Below, in pieces: positions 14,735 through 49,095 of a DNA stretch of 55,189 nt (its first letter is position 1; each line of letters opens with the position of its first letter). The notes under the pieces were generated by a model, which worked only from the letters and a program-made list of their open reading frames with translations, was not told the origin of the DNA and ran no database searches. A program made the translations under genes and the position numbers. The stretch is from a virus (lineage: Duplodnaviria; Caudoviricetes), in the IMG/VR virus record IMGVR_UViG_3300025066_002456, positions 1 to 55,189 of that record. The stretch is one strand, 5' to 3'.

Positions 14735-14755
14735 AAAAAATTCCCAACTATATTA

Positions 14756-18099: not shown

Positions 18100-18102
18100 T
18101 GT

Positions 18103-18501: not shown

Positions 18502-18511
18502 TTTCTACCCT

Positions 18512-35148: not shown

Positions 35149-35149
35149 C

Positions 35150-35356
35150 TTATTCTGACCCACTATCTATGGGGTATTCATCGTCGCTGTCGTGTTCTAA
35201 TTTCACTAGCGGAGGATTCATAATATACAATTGTTGTTCTTCGCCTATTTTAAAATCAAAATCTTTTAAAACAGGCACTATATCGCTCTGCTCCAACAAA
35301 GATTTTTGTAGGGCCATCATGACCGCGCCTAAAGCCTCATCTGATAGTTTTAACAT
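35150..35356 (-). CDS. Small hypothetical protein
   Basis: The ATG at 35356 has an AAGGAG SD (track start 35383); MLKLSDEALGAVMMALQKSLLEQSDIVP. Confidence 0.7.
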   Translation of the reverse strand: MLKLSDEALGAVMMALQKSLLEQSDIVPVLKDFDFKIGEEQQLYIMNPPLVKLEHDSDDEYPIDSGSE

Positions 35357-35357
35357 T

Positions 35358-36257
35358 TTATTCTCCTTTGTTATACCATTCATAAGTTTTTCTCAAGCCC
35401 TCCTGAAAGGGCGTAAAATTATATTTTCCGATTAGCTGCATTAATATGTCGTTCCTGCCATCTTTGCGTAGTGGCCCTTCAAGTTTTCCATTAAAGTTAT
35501 ATTTTACATCTTTTTTAGAAATTTTTAAACAAATATCAATCATTTCTTTAATAGAGGGGTTTTCATAAGGCGCCACTATAATGGGATCGTTCGTGTGGTG
35601 TTTTTCTAGTAATAGTGGAATAATTTGTGCCAAATCTTCGACATAAAGCTGTTGCCGTCGAGGCTTTCCTGTGCCCCAAAACTCTAGCGTATCGCCATGG
35701 TTTGATTCAGAAAATTTTCTTATCATAGCTGGAACAAAATGAGAAGATGTAGAATCAAAATTATCATCCGGGCCGTATACATTTGAAGGTGAGAATGTAC
35801 TATAATCCACTCCATACTGCTGTCTATATGCAGATGACATTACATGTAGACATCTTTTTGCATAACCATATGAAAAATTGCTTTCTGGTGGAGGGCCTTT
35901 AAATAAATCACCCTCGTTAAAAGGAAAAGATTTTATATTTTCCGGGAAGACACACGTGCTCAAAATTGATAATACACGAGGGACACTCTCTTTATACGCT
36001 TCATGTATTACATTTGTATTGATTTTAATATTCTTATGTATATATTCAGCTTGTTTATCGGTATTATCCTTAATTCCACCTACTTTGCCAGCTAAATGTA
36101 TAATGGCATCTAGATGCCTATGATCACGAATCATGCCACGAGTTTGATAATCGCTGGTTAAATCGTAGTCTTTTGATGAAATGTAAATCCATTCTGGCTT
36201 TTCTTTTTTAAGAGCGGAACCTATAAAACCACTACCGCCTGTAACTAATATTCTCAT
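35358..36257 (-). CDS. fcl: GDP-L-fucose synthase-like NDP-sugar epimerase/reductase
   Basis: TGGSGFIG, HLAGKVGG, LSTCVFP (Cys), YGYAKR, SHFVPAMIRKF (His), WGTGKPRR. Confidence 0.85.
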   Translation of the reverse strand: MRILVTGGSGFIGSALKKEKPEWIYISSKDYDLTSDYQTRGMIRDHRHLDAIIHLAGKVGGIKDNTDKQAEYIHKNIKINTNVIHEAYKESVPRVLSILSTCVFPENIKSFPFNEGDLFKGPPPESNFSYGYAKRCLHVMSSAYRQQYGVDYSTFSPSNVYGPDDNFDSTSSHFVPAMIRKFSESNHGDTLEFWGTGKPRRQQLYVEDLAQIIPLLLEKHHTNDPIIVAPYENPSIKEMIDICLKISKKDVKYNFNGKLEGPLRKDGRNDILMQLIGKYNFTPFQEGLRKTYEWYNKGE

Positions 36258-37132
36258 TAAAGTGTAAACTCCTTCTCAAAAAAATCACCGCAAGCACAAT
36301 GTTCGGTGAAATACTTTTTTGCATCTTCGCTAAACCATTTAAAAATATAATTATTCATTAATTTAACAAAATTTTCTTCGCTTAAGTTGCCAAAACCATC
36401 ACAATAATGCCATACTTTTATCTGTTTATGATCTTTAGTATAAAGTTTTTTATCTTGAACATAGAATTTATTTAAATGAGGTCCCCAAGGTTTTTCATAA
36501 GTAGAAAATTTTGCTGGTTTACCAGGTCCATCCAACGGCTGGGCGTGATAACCTTTCGGAAGACACATGTTTCCTTTTGAGCGAACATTGTAAACAACTT
36601 TACTTTTTAAATAAGGTCCATCAACTATTTTACAAGAATATTTATAATCATTTGACCATACAACATAGTTCAACGCACCCTGTTCCGCATATGCAGGGAA
36701 AAGTGGTGATTTTTTTATAATGTCACGAATAGCTTTTAAGTTATTAAAACAAATTACATCTGCATTTAAATGTGTTTCTTCGGTTGGAGTGAGCAACATA
36801 TGATTGTCAACCAAGTAATAGGGATAATCTAGCGAAGCTAAAATATCATGTTCATTATCATCTAAAAATTCATTTAATCTTGCACATGTTATAGTATCGG
36901 CGCCTAAAATAATTATTTTGTCTAATTTATGTTTTATCATTATTTCATAAGCTAGCATATATTTAGAAGCGCCGGTGTCCGGCACCGCGGTTAGCCCGTG
37001 AGCTTCTCTATTATTCTTATTAACATGAAACAATGTTATATCAGGATGGAATTTTTTGAAACTTTCCATCGCACATGATCCAAGTTTTTCGTATTTTCTT
37101 CCATAAAAATATATTAAACAACCAATTTTCAT
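36257..37132 (-). CDS. GT-A fold glycosyltransferase, GT8-like
   Basis: IILGADTI (variant DxD), LNADVICF, EQGALN, HYC; located within the glycan cluster. Confidence 0.6.
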   Translation of the reverse strand: MKIGCLIYFYGRKYEKLGSCAMESFKKFHPDITLFHVNKNNREAHGLTAVPDTGASKYMLAYEIMIKHKLDKIIILGADTITCARLNEFLDDNEHDILASLDYPYYLVDNHMLLTPTEETHLNADVICFNNLKAIRDIIKKSPLFPAYAEQGALNYVVWSNDYKYSCKIVDGPYLKSKVVYNVRSKGNMCLPKGYHAQPLDGPGKPAKFSTYEKPWGPHLNKFYVQDKKLYTKDHKQIKVWHYCDGFGNLSEENFVKLMNNYIFKWFSEDAKKYFTEHCACGDFFEKEFTL

Positions 37133-37171: not shown

Positions 37172-39043
37172 CTATTCAACTTCACTATATTTAACACTAG
37201 TGTTATTGCGTCCGTCCATGGTGATGATAGGAAAACGTTTTTTTATAGTTTTTCCTTTGATTCTATTTCTTTCATCATCAAAATCACTCTCAATAGCAGT
37301 AATCATGGTGCCGTCTTCCCTAACAACAGCTTCGGAAGCTTGTTCATTATTGTGCTCAATTCCAGACTTTTCTTTTCTTTGAATTCCGTGCCAATAATTC
37401 ATTCTTTCTTTGTCTCTCTCTACTTGTTCTTTGTATTTTTTCTTAAATGGCTCCCGGGCGGGAGCACTCATACCATTCAATAAGTTGCTCAACAGCGCTT
37501 TCTCTACTTCTTCATAAAACATTTTTCTTTCTTCTACGGCATCTTCTCTAACAAAAGAAGCCCTTAGAAGACCATACGTTAAATCCCCTCTTGCAGAAAA
37601 AATTTGTTTAATGAGACCGGTCAAGCCAAAATTATATTTTAATGAATAATCTACAATAGAAGGTATCAATTTTCTTTGTATCAAAAAGTTTTCAGGAGAT
37701 TCTAATATGCGATTTAAGCTAATAGCATTTCTTATTTTATCTTTCCATTCTAAAAGTTTTGCATACGTGTGGTCAACTTCATAAAACGGAACGCCACCAT
37801 CTGTTAGCCAGTATTCATCATCGATGACACCATAGTCTTCAATTTCCATCTTGGCTTCTTTAGCTATAGTAAATAATTCTGTCCCGGGATATATACCGGC
37901 CACACCAATGTCATCATAGTATATATATTGCATTTCTTGCAATTCTTGCACAAAATCTATTGTCTCATCTATTGTCTCTTCTGACTCACCAGGAAGACCT
38001 GCTATAAGAAAGGTGGTGGTTTTTATACCAGTTTCTGAAAATAATTTTCTGCCATGACGAACAGACTTATGAGTTAATCCCTTTTTCATTAACCTCATTA
38101 CGTGTTCCGAGCCTGATTCTAGACCAAAAAGAACATGCACAAATCCAGCTTCTTTCATCAACATAACAACTTCTCTAGAGATTGGTCGAAAGCGAGCGCT
38201 GCAAATAAAATTTGTTTTGATGCCTCGCTTAATTATTTCTTTGCAAAACTCTATTGTTCTGTCCTTCACAATCATAAAAGCGTCATCATGAATCCACACC
38301 GTGTTGATTGAGGGGTGATTAATTAAAATTTGTTCTACTTCATCGCATATATTGCTAGCAGAGCGACATCTAACTTTACGACGGCTTGCTGCGTCTAGAA
38401 CGCAGAAATTACACTTATACGGGCAGCCGCGGCTAGTAAGAAGGCCGGCAATGTCTTTCCCCTCCCAAATAAAAAGCTCATGCTTGGGAAATGGAAGTAC
38501 ATCGAGATCAGCAATCAGGGCGCGGGCGCCAGTTACTACAACTTCTTCTTTATTTTTATCATAGTAAGCTATGCCTCTGACATCATCGATCGGCAATCCA
38601 TTTTCCCACCTCTCCATAAGCTCGCCTAGTGTTACCTCTCCCTCCCCGACAACACATATGACCTCAGGATAAGCTTCAGCCAGCTGGTGATACATAACAC
38701 TGACGTGCATCCCGCCAATTACAATTTTAGTATCTGGCGAAATTTTCTGAATTAATTTAATTAATTTATAAGCGCCGACGCGGCTGTGAGTCATCATAGA
38801 AATCCCCACCACATCAGGCTTGAACGTTTCTATGTCTCCCTTGAGGGTCTTAAGACATTTCTCCATTGAGACATTGTTTAAGAATTGTGTTTTGATATTG
38901 TAGCCCCTGTCTAGGCTCTCTAGGTAAGAATGTAGATAACCCAATCCTAGTGGATAGTGGCTGTCATGATCATTCTCTATTCTATGATCTTCTTCTATAG
39001 TAGTACAAGTTAATAATATATTCATTTTTCTTACCATCGCCAA
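37172..39043 (-). CDS. Cobalamin-binding radical SAM protein (class B methyltransferase-like)
   Basis: YPLGLGYL, IVIGGMH and VGEGE in the B12 domain; TSRGCPYKCNFC; GLESGS. The start may be 39025 (MNILL). Confidence 0.9.
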   Translation of the reverse strand: MAMVRKMNILLTCTTIEEDHRIENDHDSHYPLGLGYLHSYLESLDRGYNIKTQFLNNVSMEKCLKTLKGDIETFKPDVVGISMMTHSRVGAYKLIKLIQKISPDTKIVIGGMHVSVMYHQLAEAYPEVICVVGEGEVTLGELMERWENGLPIDDVRGIAYYDKNKEEVVVTGARALIADLDVLPFPKHELFIWEGKDIAGLLTSRGCPYKCNFCVLDAASRRKVRCRSASNICDEVEQILINHPSINTVWIHDDAFMIVKDRTIEFCKEIIKRGIKTNFICSARFRPISREVVMLMKEAGFVHVLFGLESGSEHVMRLMKKGLTHKSVRHGRKLFSETGIKTTTFLIAGLPGESEETIDETIDFVQELQEMQYIYYDDIGVAGIYPGTELFTIAKEAKMEIEDYGVIDDEYWLTDGGVPFYEVDHTYAKLLEWKDKIRNAISLNRILESPENFLIQRKLIPSIVDYSLKYNFGLTGLIKQIFSARGDLTYGLLRASFVREDAVEERKMFYEEVEKALLSNLLNGMSAPAREPFKKKYKEQVERDKERMNYWHGIQRKEKSGIEHNNEQASEAVVREDGTMITAIESDFDDERNRIKGKTIKKRFPIITMDGRNNTSVKYSEVE

Positions 39044-39981
39044 TTATCTTTATAATATTCAACAATTTTTATTATTTCCTCATCAAAAGACTTCTTTGGC
39101 CTCCAGCCTAGATTTTTTATTTTTTCGTCATTTAACGCATACCTTACATCTTGACCGATGCGAGAATAAGAGAAGTCTATATGTTCTTTATAGTTTTCTC
39201 TATCTCCATGATATTGCACAATAATCTTTCTAACAGTATCTAGGTTCTGTTGTTCAAAATTACCAGCAACATTATAGACTTCATTAAAAAAACCAGAATT
39301 AATAACAGTTATAACTGCAGCTGTAGTATCATCAACATGTAGCCAGTTTCTATAAGGGGTACCGCCATTATGCAGCCGTATTTTTTTACCTCTCATGAGA
39401 TTTTTTACTGACAATGGAATAAGTTTTTCGGGATATTGCCCGATACCATAATTGTTAGTTGGGCGGAGGATGTTGTAGCGAAGGCCATATGTTCTGGCCC
39501 ATGCTAGTATCAGCATATCTGCTGCAGCTTTTGACGCAGCATATGGGTTACTAGGGTATAAGAGATCTTCTTCTGTGTGTTCGCCATGATTGATATCCCC
39601 ATATACCTCATCTGTGCTAAGATGAAGAAAGGCAGGTCGCGGATTACAATTCTCCTGCTTATGCCGAATAAGTTCTAATAGATTCTTAACTCCTAAAATA
39701 TTGGTATTTATAAAATCATCGCTTGATACAATACTATTTCCAACATGAGATTCAGCTGCATAATTTACTACATAATCACAATCGTAAAGATGTGTGAGGC
39801 TTCTTATATCCTTCCTTTCGAAAGAGAAGTTTTCATAACTACAAAACTCATCAAGCAATTTAGAATTAGCTGCATAAGTCAGCTTGTCAACGCCATAAAC
39901 TTTCCAACCAAGTTTTAAGGCAGCTCTTGTAAAATGTGAGCCCATAAAGCCTAAACATCCGGTTACATATATTAGTTTCAT
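39031..39981 (-). CDS. rfbB: dTDP-glucose 4,6-dehydratase (RmlB/RfbB)
   Basis: TGCLGFMGS, DKLTYAAN, AAESHV, STDEVYG, PYAASKA, NNYGIGQYPEKLIP. Confidence 0.9.
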   Translation of the reverse strand: MKLIYVTGCLGFMGSHFTRAALKLGWKVYGVDKLTYAANSKLLDEFCSYENFSFERKDIRSLTHLYDCDYVVNYAAESHVGNSIVSSDDFINTNILGVKNLLELIRHKQENCNPRPAFLHLSTDEVYGDINHGEHTEEDLLYPSNPYAASKAAADMLILAWARTYGLRYNILRPTNNYGIGQYPEKLIPLSVKNLMRGKKIRLHNGGTPYRNWLHVDDTTAAVITVINSGFFNEVYNVAGNFEQQNLDTVRKIIVQYHGDRENYKEHIDFSYSRIGQDVRYALNDEKIKNLGWRPKKSFDEEIIKIVEYYKDNWRW

Positions 39982-41306
39982 TGTAACTCCTTGAAAAACG
40001 TGTCGACTATTTTTTTAATATAAGAAATTTTTTGTTCAGTCATGCCAATAAATGTTCCCAAAAAGAAAGAGCTAGTAGTTACTAAATGGGCGTTTTTAAA
40101 CGTGTTTCTAAGGTCTGTGTAGTCGTCCCTTAAGTGCATATAGCCTGGATGATACATAATATTACCAGAAAAATAAGATCTAGTTTGAATCTTATTTTTC
40201 TCCAAGAAGGAAACAAAATCATTTCTATTAAATGGCGATTCTTCTTTAATAGTTAACAAAAAAGCAAACCAATTTGGATCAGAGTTCTCTGTTCGCTCCG
40301 GCAAATGAAAATATTTCTCATAAGGCTTGAAAACTTTTAAAAGCTTTCGAAAATTCTCTCGACGGGCTTCATCTAGAACAGGAAGTTTCTTAATCTGCTC
40401 TAGGCCAATAGCAGCTTGTAGTTCTATAGGTTTTAAATTATATCCAATTTCATCAAAAACGTATCTGTGGTCGTAATTAAATTCAGGTAAATCCGGGAGC
40501 CATGGTTGAAGCCTGTCTCCGCATGCAGTATCGGAGACAACGCAGCCGGGCTTTCCAGTATTGCAATAGCATGCGCGGCCCCAGTCTCTAAAACTAGATA
40601 ACGATTTTCTCATTGCGCCTTTGTCTGTCGCGATGAAGCCGCCTTCGCCCAAGGTCATGTGATGTGCCGGAAAAAAAGAACATGTTGAGACGTCGCCAAA
40701 AGATCCCAATTTTTTGTCTCTATAAGTAGAACCTAGAGCGTCACATGCGTCTTCGATAAAGATTAAATTATGATCATCTATAATACTCATCAAGCGATCC
40801 ATATTTGGAGGATTTCCAAGTACATGCGCGAACATTATTCCTTTAATGCCGGGATCTTTTTTCAATATTTTTTCTACTTCATCTAGATCTAGATTTAAAT
40901 CTGGCAATGTCACATCTACAAAGACCGGCTTCAGATTGCATTGAATTAAAGGATTTATAGTAGTAGGAAAGCATACAACAGGAGTTATAAATTTATCTCC
41001 ATCTTTTAGGCCAAAATGAGATTTTACTGCAGTCACGGCCAGCAAATTAGCTGAGCTTCCTGAATTTGTCAAGGATCCATATTTTTTTCCTAAGAATTTC
41101 GGAAATTCTAATTCAAACTCCCGAGACTTCTTACCAAAAATTAACCATTCATCCAAAAGGCTATCAAACGCCGCGGTATACTCTTTTTCATCGAAATGAG
41201 GTCCGGAATAGGAAACCCAGTCTTTTCCTGGTACCCAGGAATCACATGACCTTTTCTCTAGAATATATTTTTTTACTAGATCTAATATCTCTCGTTTTGT
41301 TACCAT
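39978..41306 (-). CDS. rfbH: NDP-4-keto-6-deoxyglucose 3-dehydrase (RfbH/DdhC, E1)
   Basis: NSGSSANLLA, EDACDALG; SFFPAHHMTLGEGG has His in place of the aminotransferase Lys; Fe-S Cys cluster WGRACYC...C...C; DHRYVFDEIGYNLK. Confidence 0.9.
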   Translation of the reverse strand: MVTKREILDLVKKYILEKRSCDSWVPGKDWVSYSGPHFDEKEYTAAFDSLLDEWLIFGKKSREFELEFPKFLGKKYGSLTNSGSSANLLAVTAVKSHFGLKDGDKFITPVVCFPTTINPLIQCNLKPVFVDVTLPDLNLDLDEVEKILKKDPGIKGIMFAHVLGNPPNMDRLMSIIDDHNLIFIEDACDALGSTYRDKKLGSFGDVSTCSFFPAHHMTLGEGGFIATDKGAMRKSLSSFRDWGRACYCNTGKPGCVVSDTACGDRLQPWLPDLPEFNYDHRYVFDEIGYNLKPIELQAAIGLEQIKKLPVLDEARRENFRKLLKVFKPYEKYFHLPERTENSDPNWFAFLLTIKEESPFNRNDFVSFLEKNKIQTRSYFSGNIMYHPGYMHLRDDYTDLRNTFKNAHLVTTSSFFLGTFIGMTEQKISYIKKIVDTFFKELQ

Positions 41307-42091
41307 TTCCCCTCATGCGTTTTTTTAAGAGCCGTAATAGTCTCTTCTAATCTAACAAATATATCGCTGCTAATTATCTTATTCAAATATTCTGTATTCT
41401 GGCCAAAATAATTATCAATACTGGGCTCAAGGATTTTAACACCTGCTTCAGTGATGCATCTTTCTTTTATTATATTAGCTATCTCGTGTAATGTCAAGCT
41501 AGTCCTATAGCTACAATCTACGCTTTTTTTTAAGTTATTGTTATTAATATAATAATCAATTAAAATTAATAAATCTTTCATATGAAAAAAATCCATTTTC
41601 TTGTCTTTGTGGACTATTATCTCCTTTCCACCTAGCGCTCTATTGACACTTGCTTTAATGAATCGTGTGTTGATTTCATTTTCATCAAAAAGACCATAAA
41701 TTTTGATATTATAAAAAGAATCTAAGTCTTCTATAAGTAAGCCAATCGCTTTTTTGCTGATACCATAAAAACTAGTAGGCTTATCTTGAGCGCCTGATCC
41801 AAAATGAATAAACTTACCATATTTAGATTTGTGTCTTAGCAAGTTACAAAACATCTCTAGATTGTCTGAAACGATGCTTTCTGTTTCTTGAATTAAACGA
41901 CTGCCGCCCACAACGGCTGTATGTATAACGACGTCACAGCTAAAGCCTTTAAAGTAGCCATCAACTTGTTCTTTGTTCGACAAGTCACACACAGCTCTAT
42001 TTAGCCTGAATATTTGATGTCCTTTACTTTCTAAGTAATTGCTAACAGAAGAGCCAATATAACCATTTGATCCTGTAATCAATATTTTCAT
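41300..42091 (-). CDS. NAD-dependent NDP-sugar epimerase/reductase (extended SDR)
   Basis: ITGSNGYIGS, FGSGA, YGISK. Confidence 0.85.
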   Translation of the reverse strand: MKILITGSNGYIGSSVSNYLESKGHQIFRLNRAVCDLSNKEQVDGYFKGFSCDVVIHTAVVGGSRLIQETESIVSDNLEMFCNLLRHKSKYGKFIHFGSGAQDKPTSFYGISKKAIGLLIEDLDSFYNIKIYGLFDENEINTRFIKASVNRALGGKEIIVHKDKKMDFFHMKDLLILIDYYINNNNLKKSVDCSYRTSLTLHEIANIIKERCITEAGVKILEPSIDNYFGQNTEYLNKIISSDIFVRLEETITALKKTHEGKW

Positions 42092-42092
42092 T

Positions 42093-42569
42093 TTACCTCT
42101 TGAGATTCAAGTAAGTAGGCATGTTGTTATTTATTAGGTTGTCAAAATTTTTGTCTAGCTCATGCTCTGTTCTAGGATGCATGGTAATGACGTTTTCGAA
42201 ACACTTCATTATTTTTTTGTCGTCTTCTGCCCAATGAGAAAATCCAAGATATCCATAATCTCTATCGCGACCACCGCCAATTAGCTTGACAGGTGTTTTT
42301 TCATGATCAAGATAGTTTCTTATTAATTCGAAAGGACGGTATAACACAAAAGGAGTTATAGAATATACCACTGGTATCTTTCCTTCCATGGCCATTCCTG
42401 TTGCCGCTCCTACCATCAACTGTTCGGACGAACCAAAGTTATAAAAGCGATCGCTATAGTCGATTCTTATGCGATCCCACAGACCATATCCGAGATCACC
42501 CGTTAATAGAATGATATCTTGGTTTACACTCATTTCAGAATGTAGCTTTTGACTAAAGTGTTTTCTCAT
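42093..42569 (-). CDS. Split transketolase, pyrimidine-binding subunit
   Basis: LTGDLGYG, RFYNFGSSEQLMVGAATGMA, YSITPF, RPFELIRN, LGFSHWA. Confidence 0.88.
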   Translation of the reverse strand: MRKHFSQKLHSEMSVNQDIILLTGDLGYGLWDRIRIDYSDRFYNFGSSEQLMVGAATGMAMEGKIPVVYSITPFVLYRPFELIRNYLDHEKTPVKLIGGGRDRDYGYLGFSHWAEDDKKIMKCFENVITMHPRTEHELDKNFDNLINNNMPTYLNLKR

Positions 42570-43200
42570 TTTCTATTAACTTCTTACCTAGTTTATAATC
42601 GCTTTCGCTCATTATGTGATAATGTGCATTTAAACCTTTTAAAAATGGAAAAGCACTCACATCAGTATATACAATGTTGATTGTTGGTAGAAAAACTTTT
42701 AGCCTATCGACCAAATATCTAGTATCTACTGAGCCATATGCTGCGTACCCATTAACATTAACATATACTTTTATATTTTTTAAGTTGTTTTCCCATATGA
42801 ACTTTAATGCCTCCCATATACTACCTTCTGCGCACTCTCCATCACTTATAAGGCAATATACATCCTGGTCTTTGTTTGATAAAGCACGACCGACTGCAAC
42901 TGTTAGTCCCAACCCCAAACTTCCTGTTGAGCAATAAATCTTATCTTCTTCACACAAGTGTGGATGGCCACCATGTTTTGCGAACAATTCTGCTGCATCT
43001 AAATTGCAATATTTTTCTAATACTGCGTATAGTGATAGTGCGCAGTGGCCACAAGACAAAATAAATTTATCTTTTTCTAAGTCCATCTCGGAATAGATTT
43101 CGTCAATGATTTGCAAACTAGAAAAATATGATCCCAGATGAGAAAGCTTGTTTTTATAGGCAATTTCTAAAACTCTTTCTTTTAATTTTACATCTGCCAT
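42553..43200 (-). CDS. Split transketolase, N-terminal ThDP-binding subunit
   Basis: SHLGSYFS, FILSCGH, GHP, STGSLGLGL, SDGECAEGSIWEA...N ThDP motif; the ATG at 43200 has a GGAGG SD. Confidence 0.9.
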   Translation of the reverse strand: MADVKLKERVLEIAYKNKLSHLGSYFSSLQIIDEIYSEMDLEKDKFILSCGHCALSLYAVLEKYCNLDAAELFAKHGGHPHLCEEDKIYCSTGSLGLGLTVAVGRALSNKDQDVYCLISDGECAEGSIWEALKFIWENNLKNIKVYVNVNGYAAYGSVDTRYLVDRLKVFLPTINIVYTDVSAFPFLKGLNAHYHIMSESDYKLGKKLIENEKTL

Positions 43201-43934
43201 TTCTTCCTCCAATAATCTTGTATCATCTGATCATAGTTTTTCCCTTCTCTATGCACATTCCAAGTTGCTTGCTCGGGATGCCATCTATAGTTATAGCCTG
43301 TAAATTTATGGGCTGGCCAAATAAATATATCTTTATCAGCTAGTTGGCAATACAGATCATAGTCTGCGGCGCCACCATAAACTTCTGGCTTAGTAGTCAG
43401 CATATTTTGCTCAAAGAGCTTTCTACTATAAACAACAGTTGGGCTATTAACAGGGCATTTCATTAATAGTAAGTTTTTTAATTCATCCAGTGTTTTGTAA
43501 CTATGACCCAAATGTCCAACTGAGTTTCCATCTGCTTGGACATTATTAATAGGGCTTTGTAAAGCTAGTATCCTATCTCTTGCTGCGTTGATGTACTTCA
43601 TACAATTAGTAATATAATTTTCATTATAATAGTCGTCAGATGCTAGCGTAAAAAAATATTCGCCCTTTGCTAGCTTGAAACCCTTAAAGCGAGCTTCGTC
43701 CCAACAGTTTGGATATATATTTTTTTCTTTTTCTACTCTTAGTTTGTCAGGGTGCTTTTGTCTTATTTCTTCTAGTCTATCTACAGTGTTATCAGCGCTT
43801 TCATTATCAATTGCTATGACTTCAAAATCACTGTAATCCTGACTAATAGCCGACATCACACATTGTTCTATCCAAGCTTCTGCATTGTAACATGGTATTA
43901 TAATAGATATTTTTGGCTTTACAGTTGTAATAAT
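43188..43934 (-). CDS. GT2-family glycosyltransferase; true start lies upstream of the track start and is non-canonical or uncertain
   Basis: The frame extends upstream of 43859 as IIITTVKPKISIIIPCYNAEAWIEQCVMSAISQDY; IDNES, LASDD and ADYDLY motifs. Confidence 0.8.
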   Translation of the reverse strand: MITTVKPKISIIIPCYNAEAWIEQCVMSAISQDYSDFEVIAIDNESADNTVDRLEEIRQKHPDKLRVEKEKNIYPNCWDEARFKGFKLAKGEYFFTLASDDYYNENYITNCMKYINAARDRILALQSPINNVQADGNSVGHLGHSYKTLDELKNLLLMKCPVNSPTVVYSRKLFEQNMLTTKPEVYGGAADYDLYCQLADKDIFIWPAHKFTGYNYRWHPEQATWNVHREGKNYDQMIQDYWRKKWQM

Positions 43935-44815
43935 GATTTAACCCTATTAATGTACGTATGGTTTTTCAGTATATCAAGCCTATTTTGCTCTTTTATAGCT
44001 TTAAGCTCTTCACGGTTTTTTGCTAAAAGAGTTAAAACAGTATGCTTCATCTCCAAAGGAGATGAAACAGTTTGTACTTCAGGAAGTAAATTTGTTACCT
44101 CTTCCACCTTATCTGTCAGCAGTAAGCCGGTGAGCCCTAGAGACTTGAATGTTCGTTCATTGGTATCAAGGCCTAGGACTCTCTGATATGCGTCATGAAT
44201 ATTGAGTGCCACTTTACTATTTGATAAAATTTTATTTTCTTGTTCATGAGATATGTTCTTGTTAATAAAGATACCACACTTTATCTTAGTATCTTTGAAT
44301 TCTTTAAAATAGTCAAGCATTATTTTTCTTTTCTCATTAAAGCCATTATCGGCCCACCCCCCAATAAAACAAATATCAAATTTATATTTTTTATCTTCTA
44401 TTGGTTTATAGTTAATTGAATCGAAAGCCAGAGGAATATATTTTACGTTTCTCCATTTAAAATGAAAATCAGTTACTCTTCCAAAACACCACTGGTGAAC
44501 GTTCTCACTGTTATTTAACTTCTCTATAATTGTGTCCGGACACAAAGAAATAAAATTTGGATGCGCTCCCCATGGCATCGGGAAACGATTAGGCTGGACG
44601 TAAACAAAACTCTTTCTTGAATTCTCTATAGCTTCATAATTTGACTCTCTTATGTTCGAGTCTAAGGCCATTACATAGTAGTCTCCATGTGCTTCTATTT
44701 CTTCTAAATTATCATAAAAAATTGTGTTATAACCTAAAGATTTCCAGGCAGAAGAATAGCCATTATATATCCATTTCCCGGCGCCACTATTATGTCTCTT
44801 AATGTATACTTTCAC
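43919..44815 (-). CDS. Glycosyltransferase, CgeB/Glyco_trans_1_2-like
   Basis: YIPLAFD, DICFIGG, SKVALNIH, NERTFK, HTYINRV. Confidence 0.8.
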   Translation of the reverse strand: MKVYIKRHNSGAGKWIYNGYSSAWKSLGYNTIFYDNLEEIEAHGDYYVMALDSNIRESNYEAIENSRKSFVYVQPNRFPMPWGAHPNFISLCPDTIIEKLNNSENVHQWCFGRVTDFHFKWRNVKYIPLAFDSINYKPIEDKKYKFDICFIGGWADNGFNEKRKIMLDYFKEFKDTKIKCGIFINKNISHEQENKILSNSKVALNIHDAYQRVLGLDTNERTFKSLGLTGLLLTDKVEEVTNLLPEVQTVSSPLEMKHTVLTLLAKNREELKAIKEQNRLDILKNHTYINRVKSLLQL

Positions 44816-45729
44816 AATGATGTTATACTCTCTAAGATGCTTGCAAGCCTTACTTTAGAGTCGTGATCTTTTATAAACCTTCTGTAGCCATTCTGAGTTA
44901 TTTTTTCTATTAATTTAGGCTTCTTAAGCAGAAAATTCACTTTTTTGAGCATTTCATCCGCTGTCTTGAAGGTTATTATTTCTTTGTCTATTTCAAAGTG
45001 GTTCTCAATTCCAGGAGCATATTCTGTAAATAAAAGCGCATTAGCCGCTGGTATTTCTACCATACGCCCCTTCATCTGCAACACCGGTGGTCTAGCGTTA
45101 TAATTCTTACTAAAGTTTATCCCTAATTTAGACTCAGATATTAAGCTTAACATCTCTTCGCGGGGGATACCATGAAAATTTTTGATATCAACGTTGTTGT
45201 TCTTTAAATAATCTATATAATACTTTCGATCGTAATTCATCATGCCACAAAAAGAGATATCAAGCTTTTTAGTATTTTTTTTCGGATATAAGTCTGCATT
45301 TGTATGCCAAAAACCTAAAAGTATATTATTATAGCCTATTTCTTTAAATTTTTCAATGTAATGAACTTCGGGAGTGGAACACACATGAAAAAGGCTGCAA
45401 ACACGACTTGAAAAAGTTTCAAAGCGCCATGCATCATCGCAAAACCAATTAAATGTTTTACAATTTCCTTTTTCAGTTTGTTTTATTATTCCCTCCCATG
45501 GCTCATGAGGTGTGAGGCTAGGATCGCCTGTCATACAACAATAAATTAAGTCTGGCTTGAAGTTGTCTACTATTTTATCAAAGTCTCTTTCTTCAGGATC
45601 AACAGTATCGTAAAAGTATACGTTATGTCCTAATTCTTTTAATGGTACATATAGATTTCCATAAGCACCATCATCCCACTTCTTTTCTCCATTTTGAAGA
45701 GTCTTGTTAACAACTAAGAGTATATTCAT
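44812..45729 (-). CDS. Glycosyltransferase, CgeB/Glyco_trans_1_2-like
   Basis: WFCDDAWR, DISFCG, SKLGINF, KGRMVEIPA, LFTEY, DHDSKVR. Confidence 0.82.
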   Translation of the reverse strand: MNILLVVNKTLQNGEKKWDDGAYGNLYVPLKELGHNVYFYDTVDPEERDFDKIVDNFKPDLIYCCMTGDPSLTPHEPWEGIIKQTEKGNCKTFNWFCDDAWRFETFSSRVCSLFHVCSTPEVHYIEKFKEIGYNNILLGFWHTNADLYPKKNTKKLDISFCGMMNYDRKYYIDYLKNNNVDIKNFHGIPREEMLSLISESKLGINFSKNYNARPPVLQMKGRMVEIPAANALLFTEYAPGIENHFEIDKEIITFKTADEMLKKVNFLLKKPKLIEKITQNGYRRFIKDHDSKVRLASILESITSL

Positions 45730-46562
45730 TCGTATACTCTTTCTATTAAGTCTGTTATTTCTTTATGCTTTTCTCTCATTTTATTAATAAGAGGTCGACC
45801 CTTTAATTTATACCACGACTCCTTGGTGGCGCCGACTAAATTATTTGTTATAACAGCCGTATTCATCATCCGGGCTTCGACGACCACTCTTGATAGGGTC
45901 TCCGGAGTGTCAGGGAGAAAAATTAAATTTTTATTTTTTGACAACAAAAATAGAAAATCATGATAATTTTGTGATGATATAAGCTCATAATCTAAGTCTT
46001 TGTACTCACAATATTTTATAGATTTTACTGTTCCTTTGTGAGGAATTTTAGAATTAATAATACTATATTTGTTTTGCTTATCTCTCTTAGAAAACTTTTC
46101 CATTAAATCTAAGGAATTGTTACTCCATAGATTTCCTCCTGTAGAAACAATATTCTCTAAATTTAAATTTTTCCTTACAATATTAGCGTGGAAACTAGTC
46201 TGACAAAAAACACTTCTAGCATTTTTATAAAAATTTAAATTGATAATTGCTTCTTCTGGAGCTTTGAAGTCTTCATAATCTGCAGGGTTTCTTGATGAGA
46301 GATATTTATGATCATGTTCATAAATAACATATTTGTAGCTTTCAAGGGCAACCCTGCAGTCTTCTGACAAATTTATGAAATTTGCTATTATAAAACAGCT
46401 ATTTTTGTTTTGTCTGAATAAATTTGAAGTTACTTTGTGAGATCTATACTTTAAAACATCATGTCCTCTCTTTTTAAGAAGATTGATTAATATCTCATTA
46501 TGTATTTCACCGCCGCCTAGAATATCCTCTAGAAAAAAATCTGCTATAAAAATTATTTTCAT
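45726..46562 (-). CDS. GT-B (GT4-like) glycosyltransferase
   Basis: GGGE near the N-terminus, YEHD, KG, ETLSRVVVEARMM (E-x7-E-like). Confidence 0.7.
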   Translation of the reverse strand: MKIIFIADFFLEDILGGGEIHNEILINLLKKRGHDVLKYRSHKVTSNLFRQNKNSCFIIANFINLSEDCRVALESYKYVIYEHDHKYLSSRNPADYEDFKAPEEAIINLNFYKNARSVFCQTSFHANIVRKNLNLENIVSTGGNLWSNNSLDLMEKFSKRDKQNKYSIINSKIPHKGTVKSIKYCEYKDLDYELISSQNYHDFLFLLSKNKNLIFLPDTPETLSRVVVEARMMNTAVITNNLVGATKESWYKLKGRPLINKMREKHKEITDLIERVYE

Positions 46563-46564
46563 TA

Positions 46565-47839
46565 TCAATCATGTGTTTCAATTTGCTCGTCTATCTCTTC
46601 AAGCCAGCTTTCTACATCGAACTCTTCTTCGGTACCAAGATCTAATTTTTCTAAAATTTTATTCAATTGTTTTTCTTCATTAAATTCTTCACAAACCCAT
46701 TTTTGAAGTTCTTTTGAGCGTTTCTTAAATCTACCATGATCTTTATAAACGTCTTCTAACGCCATTTTTACTGAGCCTTCCTCTGGGTAAGCCCACATTG
46801 AGTCAGATTGTATTACGCCATCCCATACAGACTCCTTTTCTACATGCTTAAGAGTATAACTTAATTTAGAAAACATATGTTTAAATTTTTCTTTGCCATT
46901 CTTGTGTTTTGTACTTTTATAAAGAAAATCTAAATGTCCTGACCAATCAGTAGCAATTATTGGCAAGCCATAATATGCTGCCTCAAACATTGGAAGGCCA
47001 AAACCCTCGCCATGTGTGGTGCTGACAAGGGCTTTAATTTTTGGATGTGTGTATAAGCCGGCCATTTCTTGATCAGTAAGATAACCATGTAATAAATATA
47101 GTTTGCACTTGCGATCTGGATATTGTGATATTACGCTCTTAAAGCGCGCCATTGTATGATTGCGATCGAGTAATGAATTTTTTGCCATATTTGCTTTCAG
47201 AATCAATCCAACATTCTCGTTATCTTTAAACGTCTCTATAAAACACTTTATAGCTTGAAGTGCGTTTTTTCTTGGAGATATCTGTGCCACAGATAAGAAA
47301 TTGAATTCTGTTTTTAAACTTAAGTCTAATTTTACGGGATCAAATTTTCTAACCGGATAAGACACATAGTCAACTGGAGTCTGGGTTTTGTAGACCCCTT
47401 CTTCGCCTGTTTGTTCATTTTTATATTTGTACTCAGTTTCTTCGAAAGTACTTTTAGAATGCTTACTAATTGTAACAATTTTATCCATTAGAAAAGATTT
47501 CTCGATCCACTGAGGAGATACCTTTGTGGTCTCGATACCGGCAGTTATCCCAATATTAATAGGCGCTATTTTCTCCCATTCATTGGGGATAGTCACCTGC
47601 AGGGAGACGTCAAACGCACCACCAGAGTTAACATACCCTATGGTCTTTTGCAGAGCTTCGTCAATCCATCTTCTTTCTTCATCGTCCTCCCAAAGCCAGC
47701 TGGTTGCTCCCCAAACAATGGGCTGTATATAAACATCATACAAATCTGGTTTAGTCCTTAGGGCACGCAAGATAGTTCTCGCATGATGACCATATCCAGA
47801 TTGAGTTAAAATTGGTCCCTTTAATAATACTTTTTTCAT
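46565..47839 (-). CDS. GT4-family glycosyltransferase
   Basis: SGYG, RKN, THGEGFGLPMFEAAYYGLPIIATDWSGH; the ATG at 47839 has a GAGG SD (track start 47863). Confidence 0.9.
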   Translation of the reverse strand: MKKVLLKGPILTQSGYGHHARTILRALRTKPDLYDVYIQPIVWGATSWLWEDDEERRWIDEALQKTIGYVNSGGAFDVSLQVTIPNEWEKIAPINIGITAGIETTKVSPQWIEKSFLMDKIVTISKHSKSTFEETEYKYKNEQTGEEGVYKTQTPVDYVSYPVRKFDPVKLDLSLKTEFNFLSVAQISPRKNALQAIKCFIETFKDNENVGLILKANMAKNSLLDRNHTMARFKSVISQYPDRKCKLYLLHGYLTDQEMAGLYTHPKIKALVSTTHGEGFGLPMFEAAYYGLPIIATDWSGHLDFLYKSTKHKNGKEKFKHMFSKLSYTLKHVEKESVWDGVIQSDSMWAYPEEGSVKMALEDVYKDHGRFKKRSKELQKWVCEEFNEEKQLNKILEKLDLGTEEEFDVESWLEEIDEQIETHD

Positions 47840-47841
47840 CC

Positions 47842-49095
47842 TCAAACCTCGTTTAAGTGCCATTTTTTATAGCCGCTTCTAGTTTCCCAAGAGCCACATT
47901 TATTATATATTTCAGTTAATAGTTCTTCCCAACGAGAGGTATACGCCTCATAATTATATTTTTTATTAACATATTCGTTGCCCATAGACCCCATCTTGTC
48001 GCGTTCTTCCGGTGTCATATTATAAATTTTTTCTAATGCATTAATGAAATCTTCTTTGTTGATTCTGTCTTCATATATGTATGGTATATCCTGTGAACCT
48101 ATAACAGCTTTAGAAACCGGCTCTATGCCAATACCAAACCAATTTTCTCCATCAGTAACTTGTTCCTGTAGACCACCTGTCATATTAACAATAATCGGAG
48201 TTCCACATGATAAAGACTCTAAAGTAGATAAACCAAACCCTTCCGCATCAGAAATGTTAACAGTAACGTCTGCAACATTGTACATTGCAGCTAAATCTGG
48301 AAAATCAACTTTTTGTGTTGAGAATTGTACTTCGCCATTTGTCAGCCCCAGATCTTCTACTATAGCTATTAAATTTGGGCCATTGGGGTCTTTTGGATCT
48401 GTATGCATAATTAATCTAGCATTTTTTTGGTCTACCCTATCTAAGAACTCTTTAAACCAGTGAATTAATGTACCAGATTGCTTTCTTCTGGCATTACGAT
48501 TATTCCAGAATACAACAAATTTCTCTTCTGGTATTTTCATTTTTTCACGTAAAGCTTTTTTATCTTCTTCACTCAAAGGCTTAAAATTTTCTGGCCTAAC
48601 AGCATGTGGCAAGTAGTGACTTTCCACCTCCGGAGAGACAGTGTTAACTATATCATGTGTAACTTTTGATATACATACTACAGCATCGTTAGAATCATAC
48701 CACACTTTGTTAAATTTTGGATATGGATAATTATCCCAAACATGATAATAAACCATTGGCATCAATGATCTAATTTCATCTTCAATTTCCCATAGCCACG
48801 GGAAGAATCTGGGATCTGTCATAAACCAAAGCATATCTGGTTTTTCAGTGCGTATAATCGATCTTACAGATTCCTGACTTCCGTATCCATCAACAGGATA
48901 AACAACTAGATTTTCTCCCCACTTGTCTGTTTTTTGTGGGGCATAATCAGTATGCTTTATCGCTCCACCAAAACACAAAAAACTAAACTTCTCTGTCTCT
49001 AAGAGTGCTTCAATCATATAACGTGTTTGTGTACCTACGCCGGATGGTGAGTAAGGATGGTCAGCTATAACAAAAACCTTAATTCTTTCTTTCAT
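47842..49095 (-). CDS. GT4-family glycosyltransferase
   Basis: PSGVG, NRNARRK, SDAEGFGLSTLESLSCGTP, TGGLQEQV. Confidence 0.9.
   Translation of the reverse strand: MKERIKVFVIADHPYSPSGVGTQTRYMIEALLETEKFSFLCFGGAIKHTDYAPQKTDKWGENLVVYPVDGYGSQESVRSIIRTEKPDMLWFMTDPRFFPWLWEIEDEIRSLMPMVYYHVWDNYPYPKFNKVWYDSNDAVVCISKVTHDIVNTVSPEVESHYLPHAVRPENFKPLSEEDKKALREKMKIPEEKFVVFWNNRNARRKQSGTLIHWFKEFLDRVDQKNARLIMHTDPKDPNGPNLIAIVEDLGLTNGEVQFSTQKVDFPDLAAMYNVADVTVNISDAEGFGLSTLESLSCGTPIIVNMTGGLQEQVTDGENWFGIGIEPVSKAVIGSQDIPYIYEDRINKEDFINALEKIYNMTPEERDKMGSMGNEYVNKKYNYEAYTSRWEELLTEIYNKCGSWETRSGYKKWHLNEV

Follow-up and report, generated by a model that had tools for sequence, protein, structure and literature searches.

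Gene content of the cassette

The window, i.e. the whole stretch of 55,189 nucleotides analyzed here, derives from an uncultured, large, marine, T4-like phage. Six closely packed ORFs, all intact, were found on its minus strand, in the order mini-transketolase (mini-TK) PP subunit, mini-TK Pyr subunit, SDR, Fe-S E1/RfbH-type 3-dehydratase, RmlB-type 4,6-dehydratase, and B12-radical SAM enzyme (rSAM). Successive ORFs overlap by 17, 7, 4, and 13 bases, the one other junction being a 1-base gap. Other marine metagenome runs yielded short contigs that matched with zero mismatches across the rSAM/RmlB junction (X8, 38800-39246; X6, 38961-39416), the RmlB/RfbH junction (X4, 39655-40035), and the TKpyr/TKN junction (X6, 42286-42817). 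Because these independent contigs are identical over the junctions, the arrangement is no assembly artefact. ORFs, domains, junction overlaps, and independent contigs all agree with the contiguous run from TK-N and TK-Pyr through SDR, RfbH, and RmlB to radical SAM described in an earlier, sequence-only reading of this DNA. The length of the nearest database relative of the PP subunit (P0001, 98% identity, 215 aa) would be consistent with translation starting near 43200. The 55-kb window, which covers ~29% of the genome (CheckV), contains no gene for an E3-type reductase, a ferredoxin, or a nucleotidyltransferase.

Table 1 Genes of the cassette and of the surrounding glycan island.
Feature	Position	Strand	Description
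Six genes upstream of cassette	43188..49095	-	GT2, two Glyco_trans_1_2-like, unnamed 280-aa gene, two GT4 (Pfam)
Mini-TK PP subunit	42553-43212	-	219 aa from TTG
Mini-TK Pyr subunit	42093-42569	-	158 aa
SDR	41300-42091	-	263 aa
RfbH	39978-41306	-	442 aa
RmlB	39031-39981	-	316 aa
B12-rSAM	37172-39043	-	623 aa (621-623 aa)
Unnamed 291-aa protein	36257..37132	-	Lead only: probably GT-A fold (GT8 / nucleotide-diphospho-sugar transferase-like) glycosyltransferase
Fcl-like (GDP-fucose-synthase-like) epimerase/reductase	35358..36257	-	NCBIfam Fcl 185 bits, below cutoff 500

The RmlB-type protein scored 312 bits against the dTDP-glucose 4,6-dehydratase model TIGR01181, short of the cutoff of 365, and just 77 bits against the CDP-glucose 4,6-dehydratase model TIGR02622. 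Since the dehydratase is of the RmlB type, the nucleotide carrier is probably not CDP. The RfbH protein exceeded the cutoff of the NCBIfam equivalog NF011936 (463 bits, cutoff 423) and aligned end to end with Yersinia E1 (PDB 3BCX, 332 bits). This alignment confirmed the earlier claim that the protein keeps the histidine of the PAHH motif and the Fe-S cysteines: His215 is retained, in a column occupied by Lys in the other E1 entry 3BB8, as are Cys188, 246, 248, and 262, the cysteines being kept in 29/29 distinct phage orthologue sequences. We predict that it is an E1/RfbH-type, PMP-dependent, Fe-S NDP-4-keto-6-deoxyhexose 3-dehydratase. The SDR is of the extended type, with a Gly-rich N-terminus and a YxxxK motif seen in the translation, and its sole family matches are of the Epimerase/RmlD type (Pfam Epimerase 73 bits, RmlD_sub_bind 45 bits).

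A miniature two-subunit transketolase

The PP subunit matched Pfam Transketolase_N (40 bits, cutoff 22) and, below cutoff, NCBIfam transketolase NF004559 (91 bits). The Pyr subunit matched Pfam Transket_pyr (55.6 bits, cutoff 27) over residues 1-158. Their best PDB matches are the N chain (6YAK) and the C chain (6YAJ), respectively, of the split TK of Carboxydothermus hydrogenoformans, no solved sequence being closer to either subunit (51 and 48 bits). The ThDP motif and catalytic residues are common to the phage subunits, this enzyme, and human-type short TKs. However, the C. hydrogenoformans chains have 309 and 341 aa and include TK_C, whereas the phage subunits lack this C-terminal domain and have two phosphate-binding positions changed. 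At 215-219 aa, the PP subunit is shorter than split-TK N subunits, and the top matches in a Pyr profile search were ~160 aa long, with the ~300-aa split-TK C subunits ranked lower.

Active-site residues are numbered as in the E. coli transketolase (TktA) literature. PP residues His25, His56, and His83 align to TktA H26, H66, and H100, and Asp124 (SDG motif), Asn154, and the AHYH motif (H261) were kept in 42/42 sequences. In the Pyr subunit, Glu49 (E411), His112 (H473), and Arg2 (R358) were invariant. Equivalents of H26, H66, H100, H261, H473, E411, D155, N185, and R358 were thus present in 42/42 mini-TKs. By contrast, H461 was deleted in 42/42 and S385 was Leu in the window and in 38/42 sequences. 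The R520 position was Arg in 26/42 and Lys in 16/42, and a 6-residue insertion in the Pyr subunit lies beside D469, around which the alignment to TktA is ambiguous. Since R358 and R520, the sugar phosphate binders of TktA, are retained, the mini-TK could still use a sugar-phosphate substrate. Because the catalytic histidines are kept but two phosphate-binding residues are lost, the mini-TK, judged by its residues, is not an ordinary pentose-phosphate enzyme.

Conserved neighborhood of the mini-TK

We examined 52 viral loci encoding mini-TK; one (L050) was dropped because no tblastn TKN match spanned half or more of the query, and the remainder were collapsed to 42 distinct loci. The Pyr subunit adjoined the PP subunit in all 42, an SDR was located at most 2.5 kb downstream in 39, and an RmlB orthologue (at least 50% identity) was present in 37. 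A His-variant 3-dehydratase was found in 37 of the 42, taking both kinds together: 27 had E1-type RfbH (at least 45% identity), and 10 further loci had a lower-identity DegT protein that matches E1 His220 with His instead of Lys and has none of the cluster cysteines. Five loci had no dehydratase; in four of these, the sequence on one or both sides of the TK gene was shorter than 5.1 kb, and the fifth (L025) had 10 kb upstream but 3.7 kb downstream. Two giant-virus MAG loci (L046, L048) carried mini-TK without an adjoining SDR. As this conservation is partly inherited in one related phage group, the loci cannot be counted as independent events.

Replacement of the ThDP enzyme in syntenic islands

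Islands syntenic with the window (RfbH 62-69%, RmlB 65-69%, and gp55 59-63% identical) share a slot in the order GT2, ThDP enzyme, SDR, RfbH, RmlB. In one island (G001, L068), the slot is occupied by a 637-aa ALS-type enzyme whose best PDB match is 8RPH (383 bits; the best acetolactate synthase scored 280 bits), described in PMC12188165 as JanthE, a YerE-like enzyme. In two others (L061, L074), it holds a PDH-E1 alpha/beta-like pair of 206 aa and 177 aa. An RfbH-centred sample of 11 viral loci contained 4 with mini-TK, 3 with a YerE-like enzyme, 1 with mini-E1, and 3 with none. For an SDR-centred sample, we removed from 80 loci one duplicate and 29 whose SDR shared less than 33% identity with each of the three references. 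Among the resulting 50 distinct viral loci, the enzyme upstream was YerE-like in 30, mini-TK in 9, and mini-E1 in 7, i.e. a same-strand ThDP enzyme preceded the SDR in 46, and 4 had none. Over its whole length, the window SDR is homologous to those that come after the ThDP enzyme in related phages, at 25% identity (E 4e-22) where that enzyme is YerE-like and at 29% (E 4e-29) where it is the mini-E1 pair.

Two earlier proposals gain weight from these patterns. The conserved TKN-TKP-SDR triad with dehydratases, together with YerE-like and PDH-E1-like substitutes in the same slot, supports the TK pair as a putative branching enzyme. The pairing of SDR with mini-TK in 39/42 loci and with an upstream ThDP enzyme in 46/50 points to the SDR as its predicted reductase partner, in a YerF-like role.

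A predicted route to a branched deoxysugar

We consider it reasonably likely that the cassette builds a rare C-branched deoxysugar by means of the mini-TK, with the SDR as reductase and the rSAM optional. From the gene identities, conserved residues, neighborhood, and exchange of the ThDP enzyme for members of other families, we infer chemical steps, donor, branch position, nucleotide carrier, and acceptor as follows. The RmlB-type enzyme would first convert NDP-glucose to NDP-4-keto-6-deoxyglucose. As the window encodes no nucleotidyltransferase, NDP-glucose would be taken from the host, the carrier probably being host-supplied dTDP or UDP. The Fe-S His-variant E1/RfbH would then strip the 3-hydroxyl to give NDP-4-keto-3,6-dideoxyhexose, using electrons supplied by a reductase that is unlinked or belongs to the host. 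The mini-TK, composed of PP and Pyr only, would put a ThDP-bound two-carbon unit on the C4 ketone, creating a tertiary-alcohol branch whose side-chain carbonyl would be reduced by the adjoining SDR. Neighboring glycosyltransferases would attach the sugar to an acceptor on the virion or host surface. Because the full transketolase histidine set is kept, a glycolaldehyde unit seems likelier than acetaldehyde. Its donor could be a ketose phosphate or hydroxypyruvate, and the product would bear a 4-C-(1,2-dihydroxyethyl) branch as opposed to the 1-hydroxyethyl of yersiniose.

The yersiniose A pathway of Yersinia pseudotuberculosis (DdhA-D including E1/RfbH; YerE; YerF), with ErwE and JanthE, has a logic in common with the window: a 4,6-dehydratase, a PMP/Fe-S 3-dehydratase, a ThDP enzyme acting on the C4 ketone, and a reductase, the branched product of that pathway needing the SDR-type YerF. 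The likeness extends to the window RfbH, which lies above the RfbH equivalog cutoff, and to the YerE-like enzyme in the slot of syntenic phages. In contrast, the ThDP enzyme of the window is transketolase-type and two-subunit, not ALS-type, its dehydratase is RmlB-type, not CDP-glucose type, and E3 reductase and cytidylyltransferase are absent from the window. We predict a ketose or hydroxypyruvate as donor, not pyruvate, and the cassette is carried by a phage.

According to the review PMC12247030, keto-sugar branching is done by YerE-type and E1 alpha/beta-type enzymes, the YerE-like ones being characterised branchers of CDP-4-keto-3,6-dideoxyglucose. Its section 2.3 gives split TKs a putative role as branchers in miharamycin and amipurimycin, and it cites 13 split TKs from Streptomyces BGCs (Krug et al. 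2024); the review reports no biochemical datum for a mini-TK or split TK acting on a keto-sugar. Like the window pair, the miharamycin and amipurimycin TKs are two-subunit enzymes of the TK family beside keto-sugar-forming genes, with a proposed two-carbon transfer to a sugar ketone that would leave a hydroxyacetyl branch (PMC12247030). Whereas the review characterizes these enzymes simply as 'split-gene' (PMC12247030), the phage pair is a miniature of 215 + 158 aa and lacks TK_C. It is also viral and marine, and is paired with a 3-dehydratase and a dedicated SDR. The actinomycete alphaKADH2 class (e.g. KbDH-alpha/beta) comprises two-subunit PP + Pyr ThDP enzymes that form a C2 branch on deoxy-keto sugars (PMC12247030). 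Miniature E1 alpha/beta enzymes resembling this class replace the mini-TK in the syntenic phages L061 and L074 and in 7/50 SDR loci, but the class is of another ThDP family and has pyruvate as its donor, while the window itself has the TK type.

An optional B12-radical SAM gene

The rSAM matched Pfam B12-binding (67.9 bits) and Radical_SAM (77.2 bits) with both motifs intact, and the CxxxCxxC cysteines C207, C211, and C214 were invariant. Against NCBIfam subfamilies every score fell below cutoff, the top matches being HpnJ and BchE, and the best PDB matches were AprD4 (69 bits), OxsB (58), CysS (44), and TokK (40). With three cobalamin-dependent (class B) enzymes, the methyltransferases TokK and CysS and the ring-contracting OxsB, it shares an N-terminal B12-binding domain and an rSAM core with CxxxCxxC; AprD4, a diol dehydratase, aligns to the core only (query residues 199-396). 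However, similarity to these four is weak (40-69 bits), and the window protein has an extra C-terminal region of ~200 residues. To our knowledge, none of HpnJ, BchE, and AprD4 is a methyltransferase.

The idea of a 'five-enzyme cassette' as one unit did not survive the gene-neighborhood search of viral loci: the window-type rSAM was present in only 3 of 42 distinct mini-TK loci, and homologues occur equally with YerE-like and mini-E1 cassettes, hence with all three ThDP types. The window gene sits between RmlB and the Fcl/Gmd module, in a region of variable content where relatives have NeuB/CMP-transferase, GT10, or MptE-like modules inserted. From this distribution, we regard the rSAM as an optional accessory tailoring gene outside the core cassette; that it C-methylates the branched sugar would be a guess.

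It is unlikely that, as the earlier reading suggested, all six enzymes act on one sugar, with mini-TK branching, SDR reducing, and rSAM C-methylating it to a higher-carbon methylated sugar. This would suit the intact motifs, the rSAM start overlapping the RmlB stop by 7-13 bases at a junction found in independent contigs, and the nearest bacterial homologue (L088, 45% identity), a member of a glycan cluster that also encodes a YerE-like enzyme. It would also suit 8 of the 12 viral loci of the rSAM family, in which the gene directly follows RmlB inside a ThDP/SDR/RfbH cassette. Yet, besides the sparse occurrence with mini-TK, the exchangeable site, and the lack of a methyltransferase subfamily match at cutoff, one homologue (L063) has an RmlA-like gene as its sole sugar neighbor, and three of the 12 (L164, L166, L170) have no query sugar gene within 9 kb, the Pfam-annotated neighbors of L164 and L170 amounting to nothing but one distant CTP_transf_like protein.

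Quite unlikely, too, is an unbranched 3,6-dideoxyhexose or 6-deoxyhexose finished by the SDR as terminal 4-ketoreductase (abequose/paratose-synthase-like), the mini-TK working elsewhere, e.g. in small-metabolite supply or recycling. The SDR's family matches fit such a role, and the cassette has no other terminal 4-reductase, the Fcl-like gene lying further downstream. This would nevertheless leave unexplained why three unrelated ThDP carboligase families precede the SDR in 46/50 loci and why the G001 enzyme best matches the ketone-branching JanthE, and the branched product of the yersiniose pathway requires an SDR-type reductase, YerF, as well. Finally, although the catalytic His/Glu, R358, and R520 are retained and JGI annotation calls relatives 'transketolase', it is highly improbable that the TK pair is an auxiliary metabolic gene boosting the host pentose-phosphate pathway in infection, unrelated to the sugar genes, given the missing TK_C and H461, Leu at S385, a constant setting among glycan genes with overlapping reading frames, YerE-like or E1-like substitutes in syntenic phages, and no homologue >35% identical among INPHARED isolate phages.

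Surrounding glycan island

Downstream of the cassette, the 291-aa protein had no match in Pfam or NCBIfam; viral GT8 and Nucleotid_trans clusters are among its structure neighbors in the ESM Atlas (TM 0.61-0.64), which offers a lead only towards a GT-A fold glycosyltransferase. The Fcl-like gene belongs to a second sugar module, in which the next gene in relatives is Gmd (Pfam GDP_Man_Dehyd, 428-446 bits); the window lacks this partner. Upstream, the six-gene order is repeated in syntenic relatives and forms the conserved backbone of the glycan island.

A contiguous sugar-gene cassette in a marine phage contig

The window, an IMG/VR virus record of 55,189 bases, was estimated by CheckV to be ~29% complete. 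From 49095 down to 35358, every gene lies on the minus strand and is sugar-related, and the G+C content of this stretch is 32-38% vs 39-45% in the structural region. The nearest isolate relatives of the baseplate proteins, Flavobacterium phage immuto and Microcystis phage Mel-JY01, are ~30% identical. Within the sugar stretch, six intact genes follow one another in the order of transcription: the PP and Pyr subunits of a miniature transketolase (mini-TK), SDR, RfbH, RmlB, and a B12-radical SAM protein (rSAM). Their junctions are 4-17-base overlaps or a 1-base gap, and they were matched without any difference by independent marine metagenome contigs. Contigs of four marine DNA runs span the cassette in small pieces, the uncovered parts being uninformative. 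The intact reading frames, the family matches and the matched junctions confirm that the six-gene run described in the sequence-only reading is real.

Features of the window, including the cassette and observations on other genes
Feature	Coordinates	Strand	Remark
Very large ORF	2548-8862		2104 aa
Very large ORF	8900-14734		1944 aa
Very large ORF	18512-28405		3297 aa
Very large ORF	29874-33557		1227 aa
gp25, gp6-like baseplate wedge, PhoH			Phage genes
T4-type late sigma factor (gp55)	33848-34540
Fcl-like gene	35358-36257	-
B12-radical SAM	37172-39043	-	Cassette, sixth gene
RmlB	39031-39981	-	Cassette, fifth gene
RfbH	39978-41306	-	Cassette, fourth gene
SDR	41300-42091	-	Cassette, third gene
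TK Pyr subunit	42093-42569	-	Cassette, second gene
TK PP subunit	42553-43212	-	Cassette, first gene
HExxH metallopeptidase-like ORF	50167-50844		Pfam match sub-threshold only
Trypsin-like serine protease	52460-53206	+	Signal-like N-terminus; sole long plus-strand gene in that region
SpoU-type RNA methyltransferase	53061-53705	-	Overlaps the 3' end of the protease gene
GIY-YIG nuclease-domain ORF	54017-54844		N-terminal two thirds are near-repeats of a Lys/Glu-rich ~11-residue motif

The four very large ORFs, which adjoin gp25 and the gp6-like wedge of the baseplate, matched no Pfam family above cutoff. They are candidates for fibre proteins or adhesins, and glycosylation may target them.

The core of the cassette recurs with mini-TK in viral contigs

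A scan of viral contigs with mini-TK returned 52 loci. One (L050) was dropped because no tblastn match to the PP subunit spanned half or more of the query; the rest gave 42 distinct loci, 33 of which have at least 4 kb upstream and at least 5 kb downstream. The sequence-only reading had taken the transketolase pair, SDR, RfbH, RmlB and rSAM as a single cassette to be sought elsewhere. We found that the core of Pyr subunit, SDR, RmlB and a 3-dehydratase-type gene (RfbH or DegT) does recur (42, 39, 37, and 37 of 42 loci, respectively), but that rSAM does not belong to it, being present at only 3.

Occurrence of cassette genes at distinct mini-TK loci in viral contigs
Feature	All loci	Flank-filtered subset
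Pyr subunit adjacent	42/42	33/33
SDR <=2.5 kb downstream of mini-TK	39/42	32/33
RmlB orthologue	37/42	30/33
E1-type RfbH	27/42	24/33
Lower-identity DegT only	10/42	8/33
Neither RfbH nor DegT	5/42	1/33
Window-type rSAM	3/42	3/33

The best PDB matches of the protein at the ten DegT-only loci are the dehydratase E1, then ColD. Because its residue at the E1 His220 column is His and the cluster cysteines are missing, this protein is a predicted Fe-S-free variant of the dehydratase type.

A single slot is occupied by any of three thiamine enzyme families

By following the rSAM and RfbH genes into relatives, we reached syntenic islands that share the order GT4, GT4, an unnamed gene, GT-like genes, GT2, X, SDR, RfbH, RmlB ... 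Fcl, Gmd, gp55, in which X is a ThDP enzyme slot. In one relative (G001, with loci L058 and L068), X is a 637-aa three-domain ALS-type enzyme whose best PDB match is 8RPH (383 bits vs 280 bits for the best acetolactate synthase). 8RPH is JanthE, a YerE-like ketone-branching enzyme, according to excerpts of PMC12188165. At loci L061 and L074, X is a miniature PDH-E1 pair (mini-E1), consisting of a 206-aa E1-alpha-like and a 177-aa E1-beta-like protein. The SDR of the window, directly downstream of mini-TK, is homologous over its full length to the SDRs found beside the YerE-like enzyme (E 4e-22) and the mini-E1 pair (E 4e-29).

We then counted the upstream enzymes in loci drawn from related phages, which are not independent events. 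The RfbH-centred sample (n=11 loci) contained 4 mini-TK, 3 YerE-like, 1 mini-E1, and 3 without any of these. The SDR-centred sample began with 80 loci, of which 29 were dropped (SDR <33% identical to all three references) together with 1 duplicate. Among the 50 left, the upstream enzyme was YerE-like in 30, mini-TK in 9, mini-E1 in 7, and none in 4, so that a ThDP enzyme precedes the SDR in 46 of 50 viral loci of this SDR family. In the rSAM-centred scan (12 loci on 12 contigs), rSAM lay directly after RmlB within a ThDP cassette at 8 loci: 4 YerE-like, 1 mini-E1, and 3 mini-TK. The samples centred on RfbH, on the SDR and, in bacteria, on YerE-like genes (below) agree, and the alternation of three ThDP families in one slot is the key evidence on the function of mini-TK. 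A bacterial scan with the YerE-like alignment returned 80 loci, 22 of which contain RfbH-like genes (at least 40% identity). The same SDR type was found within 1.5 kb downstream in 9 of the 76 loci with at least 1.2 kb of downstream DNA.

In the excerpted text of PMC12247030, YerE-like and E1 alpha/beta enzymes appear as known or proposed catalysts of branching in deoxy-keto sugars. The simplest reading is that mini-TK would do the same branching job on the same acceptor, with the SDR in the role of YerF. The working logic of the window cassette would then be that of the yersiniose A route, in which YerE is likewise coupled to YerF; the YerF role is assigned to the window SDR by its position and context. 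The two systems differ in their parts. The yersiniose module uses an ALS-type three-domain enzyme of the YerE clade, a CDP-type dehydratase and E3, whereas the window has a TK-type enzyme, with YerE-like enzymes only in syntenic relatives, an RmlB-type dehydratase, and no E3 gene in its 55 kb.

The sister island in G001 (~10900-25000) holds a far richer tailoring set than the window. It encodes the YerE-like enzyme, SDR, a TylC3-like C-methyltransferase (Methyltransf_14), an rSAM-SPASM protein, IscA-like and NifU-like Fe-S assembly proteins, and a 2x[4Fe-4S] ferredoxin between RfbH and RmlB, as well as a B12-rSAM, Fcl, a sulfotransferase and Gmd.

Mini-TK keeps transketolase catalytic residues and lacks the C-terminal domain

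The PP subunit has 215-219 residues and the Pyr subunit 158 aa, which is also the family median. The SDR gene starts 2 bases past the end of the Pyr subunit gene. Since the Pyr subunit stops at 158 aa just before SDR, the TK_C domain is absent, in contrast to the canonical family of PP, Pyr and TK_C. The two subunits would assemble into one putative enzyme, the one line of support being their adjacency at 42/42 loci. The nearest solved sequences are the Carboxydothermus split TK (6YAK/6YAJ) and human TK.

E. coli TktA served as the reference in an alignment of 42 distinct phage sequences. The columns of TktA H26, H66, H100, H261, H473, E411, D155, N185, and R358 were kept in 42/42 (these residues, like S385, H461 and R520, are numbered as in the literature). 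Invariant residues are H25, H56, H83, and H197/H199 in the PP subunit and E49, at the column of the cofactor-activating Glu (E411), and H112 in the Pyr subunit. The ThDP diphosphate motif GDG was SDG in 41/42, with Asp124 and Asn154 invariant. Among the sugar-phosphate positions other than R358, 26 of the 42 sequences have Arg at the R520 column and the other 16 have Lys, S385 is replaced by Leu in 38/42, and H461 is deleted in 42/42. A 6-residue insertion lies beside D469, where two alignments disagree. The conserved TK residues, taken with the changes at S385 and H461, argue that the catalytic machinery of transketolase is kept and that the substrate channel has probably been rebuilt.

Dehydratases and partner genes

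RfbH scored 463 bits against the curated equivalog model NF011936 (cutoff 423) and aligned over its whole length to Yersinia E1 (PDB 3BCX, 332 bits). The alignment to E1 bears out that RfbH carries both the dehydratase His and the Fe-S cysteines, as had been noted earlier. His215 replaces the aminotransferase Lys and falls on the column that is Lys in the other E1 entry, 3BB8. Cys188/246/248/262, which align to the [2Fe-2S] ligands of E1, were kept in 29/29 distinct phage orthologue sequences, and the last two ligands stand further apart than they do in E1. RmlB scored 312 bits against TIGR01181 (cutoff 365), the top score among the dehydratase models tried; the CDP-glucose-type model gave only 77 bits.

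Within the window, we found no gene of the E3 (AscD/DdhD) or ferredoxin-NADP-reductase type, no ferredoxin and no nucleotidyltransferase. Judging from this gene content, these partners would have to be supplied by the host or encoded by the phage beyond the window. The 291-aa gene after rSAM looks like a putative GT-A/GT8-type transferase, based on a lead from the Atlas search. In syntenic relatives (L002, L016, L058, L061, L165-L171), the Fcl-like gene is followed by Gmd. Gmd is absent from the window, which between the Fcl-like gene and gp55 (34540-35358) has just two ORFs, a zinc-ribbon one of 91 aa and another of 135 aa, and the GDP-sugar module of the window appears to have lost its dehydratase.

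A possible route to a branched 3,6-dideoxyhexose

The sequence-only reading had the transketolase pair branching a 4-keto-3,6-dideoxy sugar, the SDR reducing the product and rSAM methylating it. In the route that we propose, RmlB would turn NDP-glucose into a 4-keto-6-deoxy sugar, RfbH would yield the 4-keto-3,6-dideoxy sugar, mini-TK would form a 4-C-acyl tertiary alcohol, and SDR reduction would give a 4-C-(hydroxyalkyl) sugar. In transketolases, histidines hold the hydroxymethyl group of the donor. Because these histidines are kept, glycolaldehyde is favoured as the transferred unit, which would give a dihydroxyethyl branch. From the YerE-like and E1 variants, a hydroxyethyl (yersiniose-type) branch would be expected.

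We tentatively consider it possible that, in marine T4-like phages, an uncharacterised minimal TK, with PP and Pyr on two small proteins and no C-terminal domain, performs carboligation on the ketone of a nucleotide sugar. It would add a glycolyl (hydroxyacetyl) branch that a dedicated SDR reduces, giving a 4-C-(1,2-dihydroxyethyl)-3,6-dideoxyhexose. On the same tentative proposal, TK, PDH-E1 and YerE would be swapped in one slot among lineages, diversifying the branch, and in a minority that includes the window a B12-rSAM would add a further carbon. We know of no glycan with such a sugar.

In the excerpted text of PMC12247030, miharamycin, amipurimycin and 13 Streptomyces clusters are the only cases for which TK-type sugar branching is proposed, and it has never been shown in vitro. 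Searches of open-access texts and bioRxiv, with queries naming neither mini nor split forms, found no paper on phage mini-transketolases. The phage mini-TK is set apart from the 13 Streptomyces split TKs on the basis of their description. Krug et al. 2024 reportedly described 13 split TKs and >200 YerE-like clusters.

If mini-TK branches a nucleotide sugar, no transketolase-type ketone carboligase would have been demonstrated before it, and at ~375 residues across two chains it would also be the smallest such enzyme. Marine virome genes annotated as 'transketolase' would then be re-read as glycan-tailoring genes, not pentose-phosphate auxiliary genes. The three alternating thiamine enzyme families form a natural experiment, which suggests that phages vary a surface sugar, with hosts or grazers presumably exerting the selection.

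The B12-radical SAM gene is an accessory

The rSAM protein matched the Pfam B12-binding and radical SAM families above cutoffs, and the CxxxCxxC cysteines C207, C211, and C214 were invariant in 21 sequences. It shares this core with class B radical SAM methyltransferases, but falls below all subfamily cutoffs tried. Among the best 25 of 33 matching NCBIfam models, all scores were far below cutoffs, and the top matches (HpnJ, 154 bits; BchE, 149) are not known to be methyltransferase models; PhpK followed at 137 bits. PDB matches were AprD4 (69 bits), OxsB (58), CysS (44), and TokK (40). No characterised methyltransferase subfamily was reached among these models and PDB matches, and the Atlas search gave only generic B12/rSAM clusters.

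Of the 12 loci in the rSAM-centred scan, one, on a 7.7-kb contig, has rSAM beside only an RmlA-like gene, and three (L164, L166, L170) have no query sugar gene within 9 kb. Pfam scans of L164 and L170 showed as neighbour only a large DUF6267/CTP_transf_like protein ~3 kb downstream, the other genes around rSAM matching no Pfam family. The B12-rSAM family may have a substrate other than a deoxysugar. In rSAM-free relatives, the position between RmlB and Fcl/Gmd is taken by other modules. The glycan cluster that holds the closest bacterial homologue (L088, 45% identity) also contains a YerE-like gene. Given these contexts, its rarity at mini-TK loci and the lack of a curated subfamily, rSAM is an accessory tailoring gene that is not tied to the TK branch. 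It is plausibly directed at a sugar, with methylation as one possible reaction.

The B12-rSAM homologues at L164, L166 and L170 (match 9001-10700 in each) are 51-52% identical. Other rSAM matches in the genome scan were uninformative, being mostly B12-rSAM proteins of other kinds at 25-33% identity, and the search patterns were generic.

Breadth and origin of the mini-TK family

A word-indexed protein search found 5,956 relatives of mini-TK. The best 120 were all 198-232 aa, and the named ones among them came from marine and Tara data. When the Pyr subunit was used in an exhaustive profile search, 7,405 proteins matched at E <=0.001 and 377 at E <=1e-30. The top matches are ~160 aa, and lower ranks include ~300-aa split-TK C subunits matching from residue 1. 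This succession suggests that the mini form descends from a split TK that lost its TK_C domain. Many ~300-aa proteins (P0271, P0279, P0284 onward) matched the whole 158-position profile from residue 1 with 135-157 bits, and probably represent full split-TK C subunits of the clade that gave rise to the mini form.

The family is large, yet tblastn found no homologue >35% identical in the isolate phages searched, and the cassette had no blastn match there. Isolate-phage matches at 25.7-34.5% identity were mostly ordinary or contaminating bacterial TK genes. A genome scan with mini-TK returned 4 loci, of which three (66-69% identical) are short, viral-looking MAG contigs. On two contigs labelled GVMAG, for giant-virus MAG (L046 and L048), mini-TK pairs 48-52% identical to that of the window have no adjacent SDR, and the L046 pair has one subunit on each strand.

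Synechococcus phage RN05-S (L080, 89393-108595) has an RfbH-like gene (38% identity), but was set aside for having no ThDP enzyme. The glycan island of this cultured cyanophage carries GT11/GT17/GT2, Gmd and RmlC-like genes and a small transaldolase/F6P-aldolase gene.
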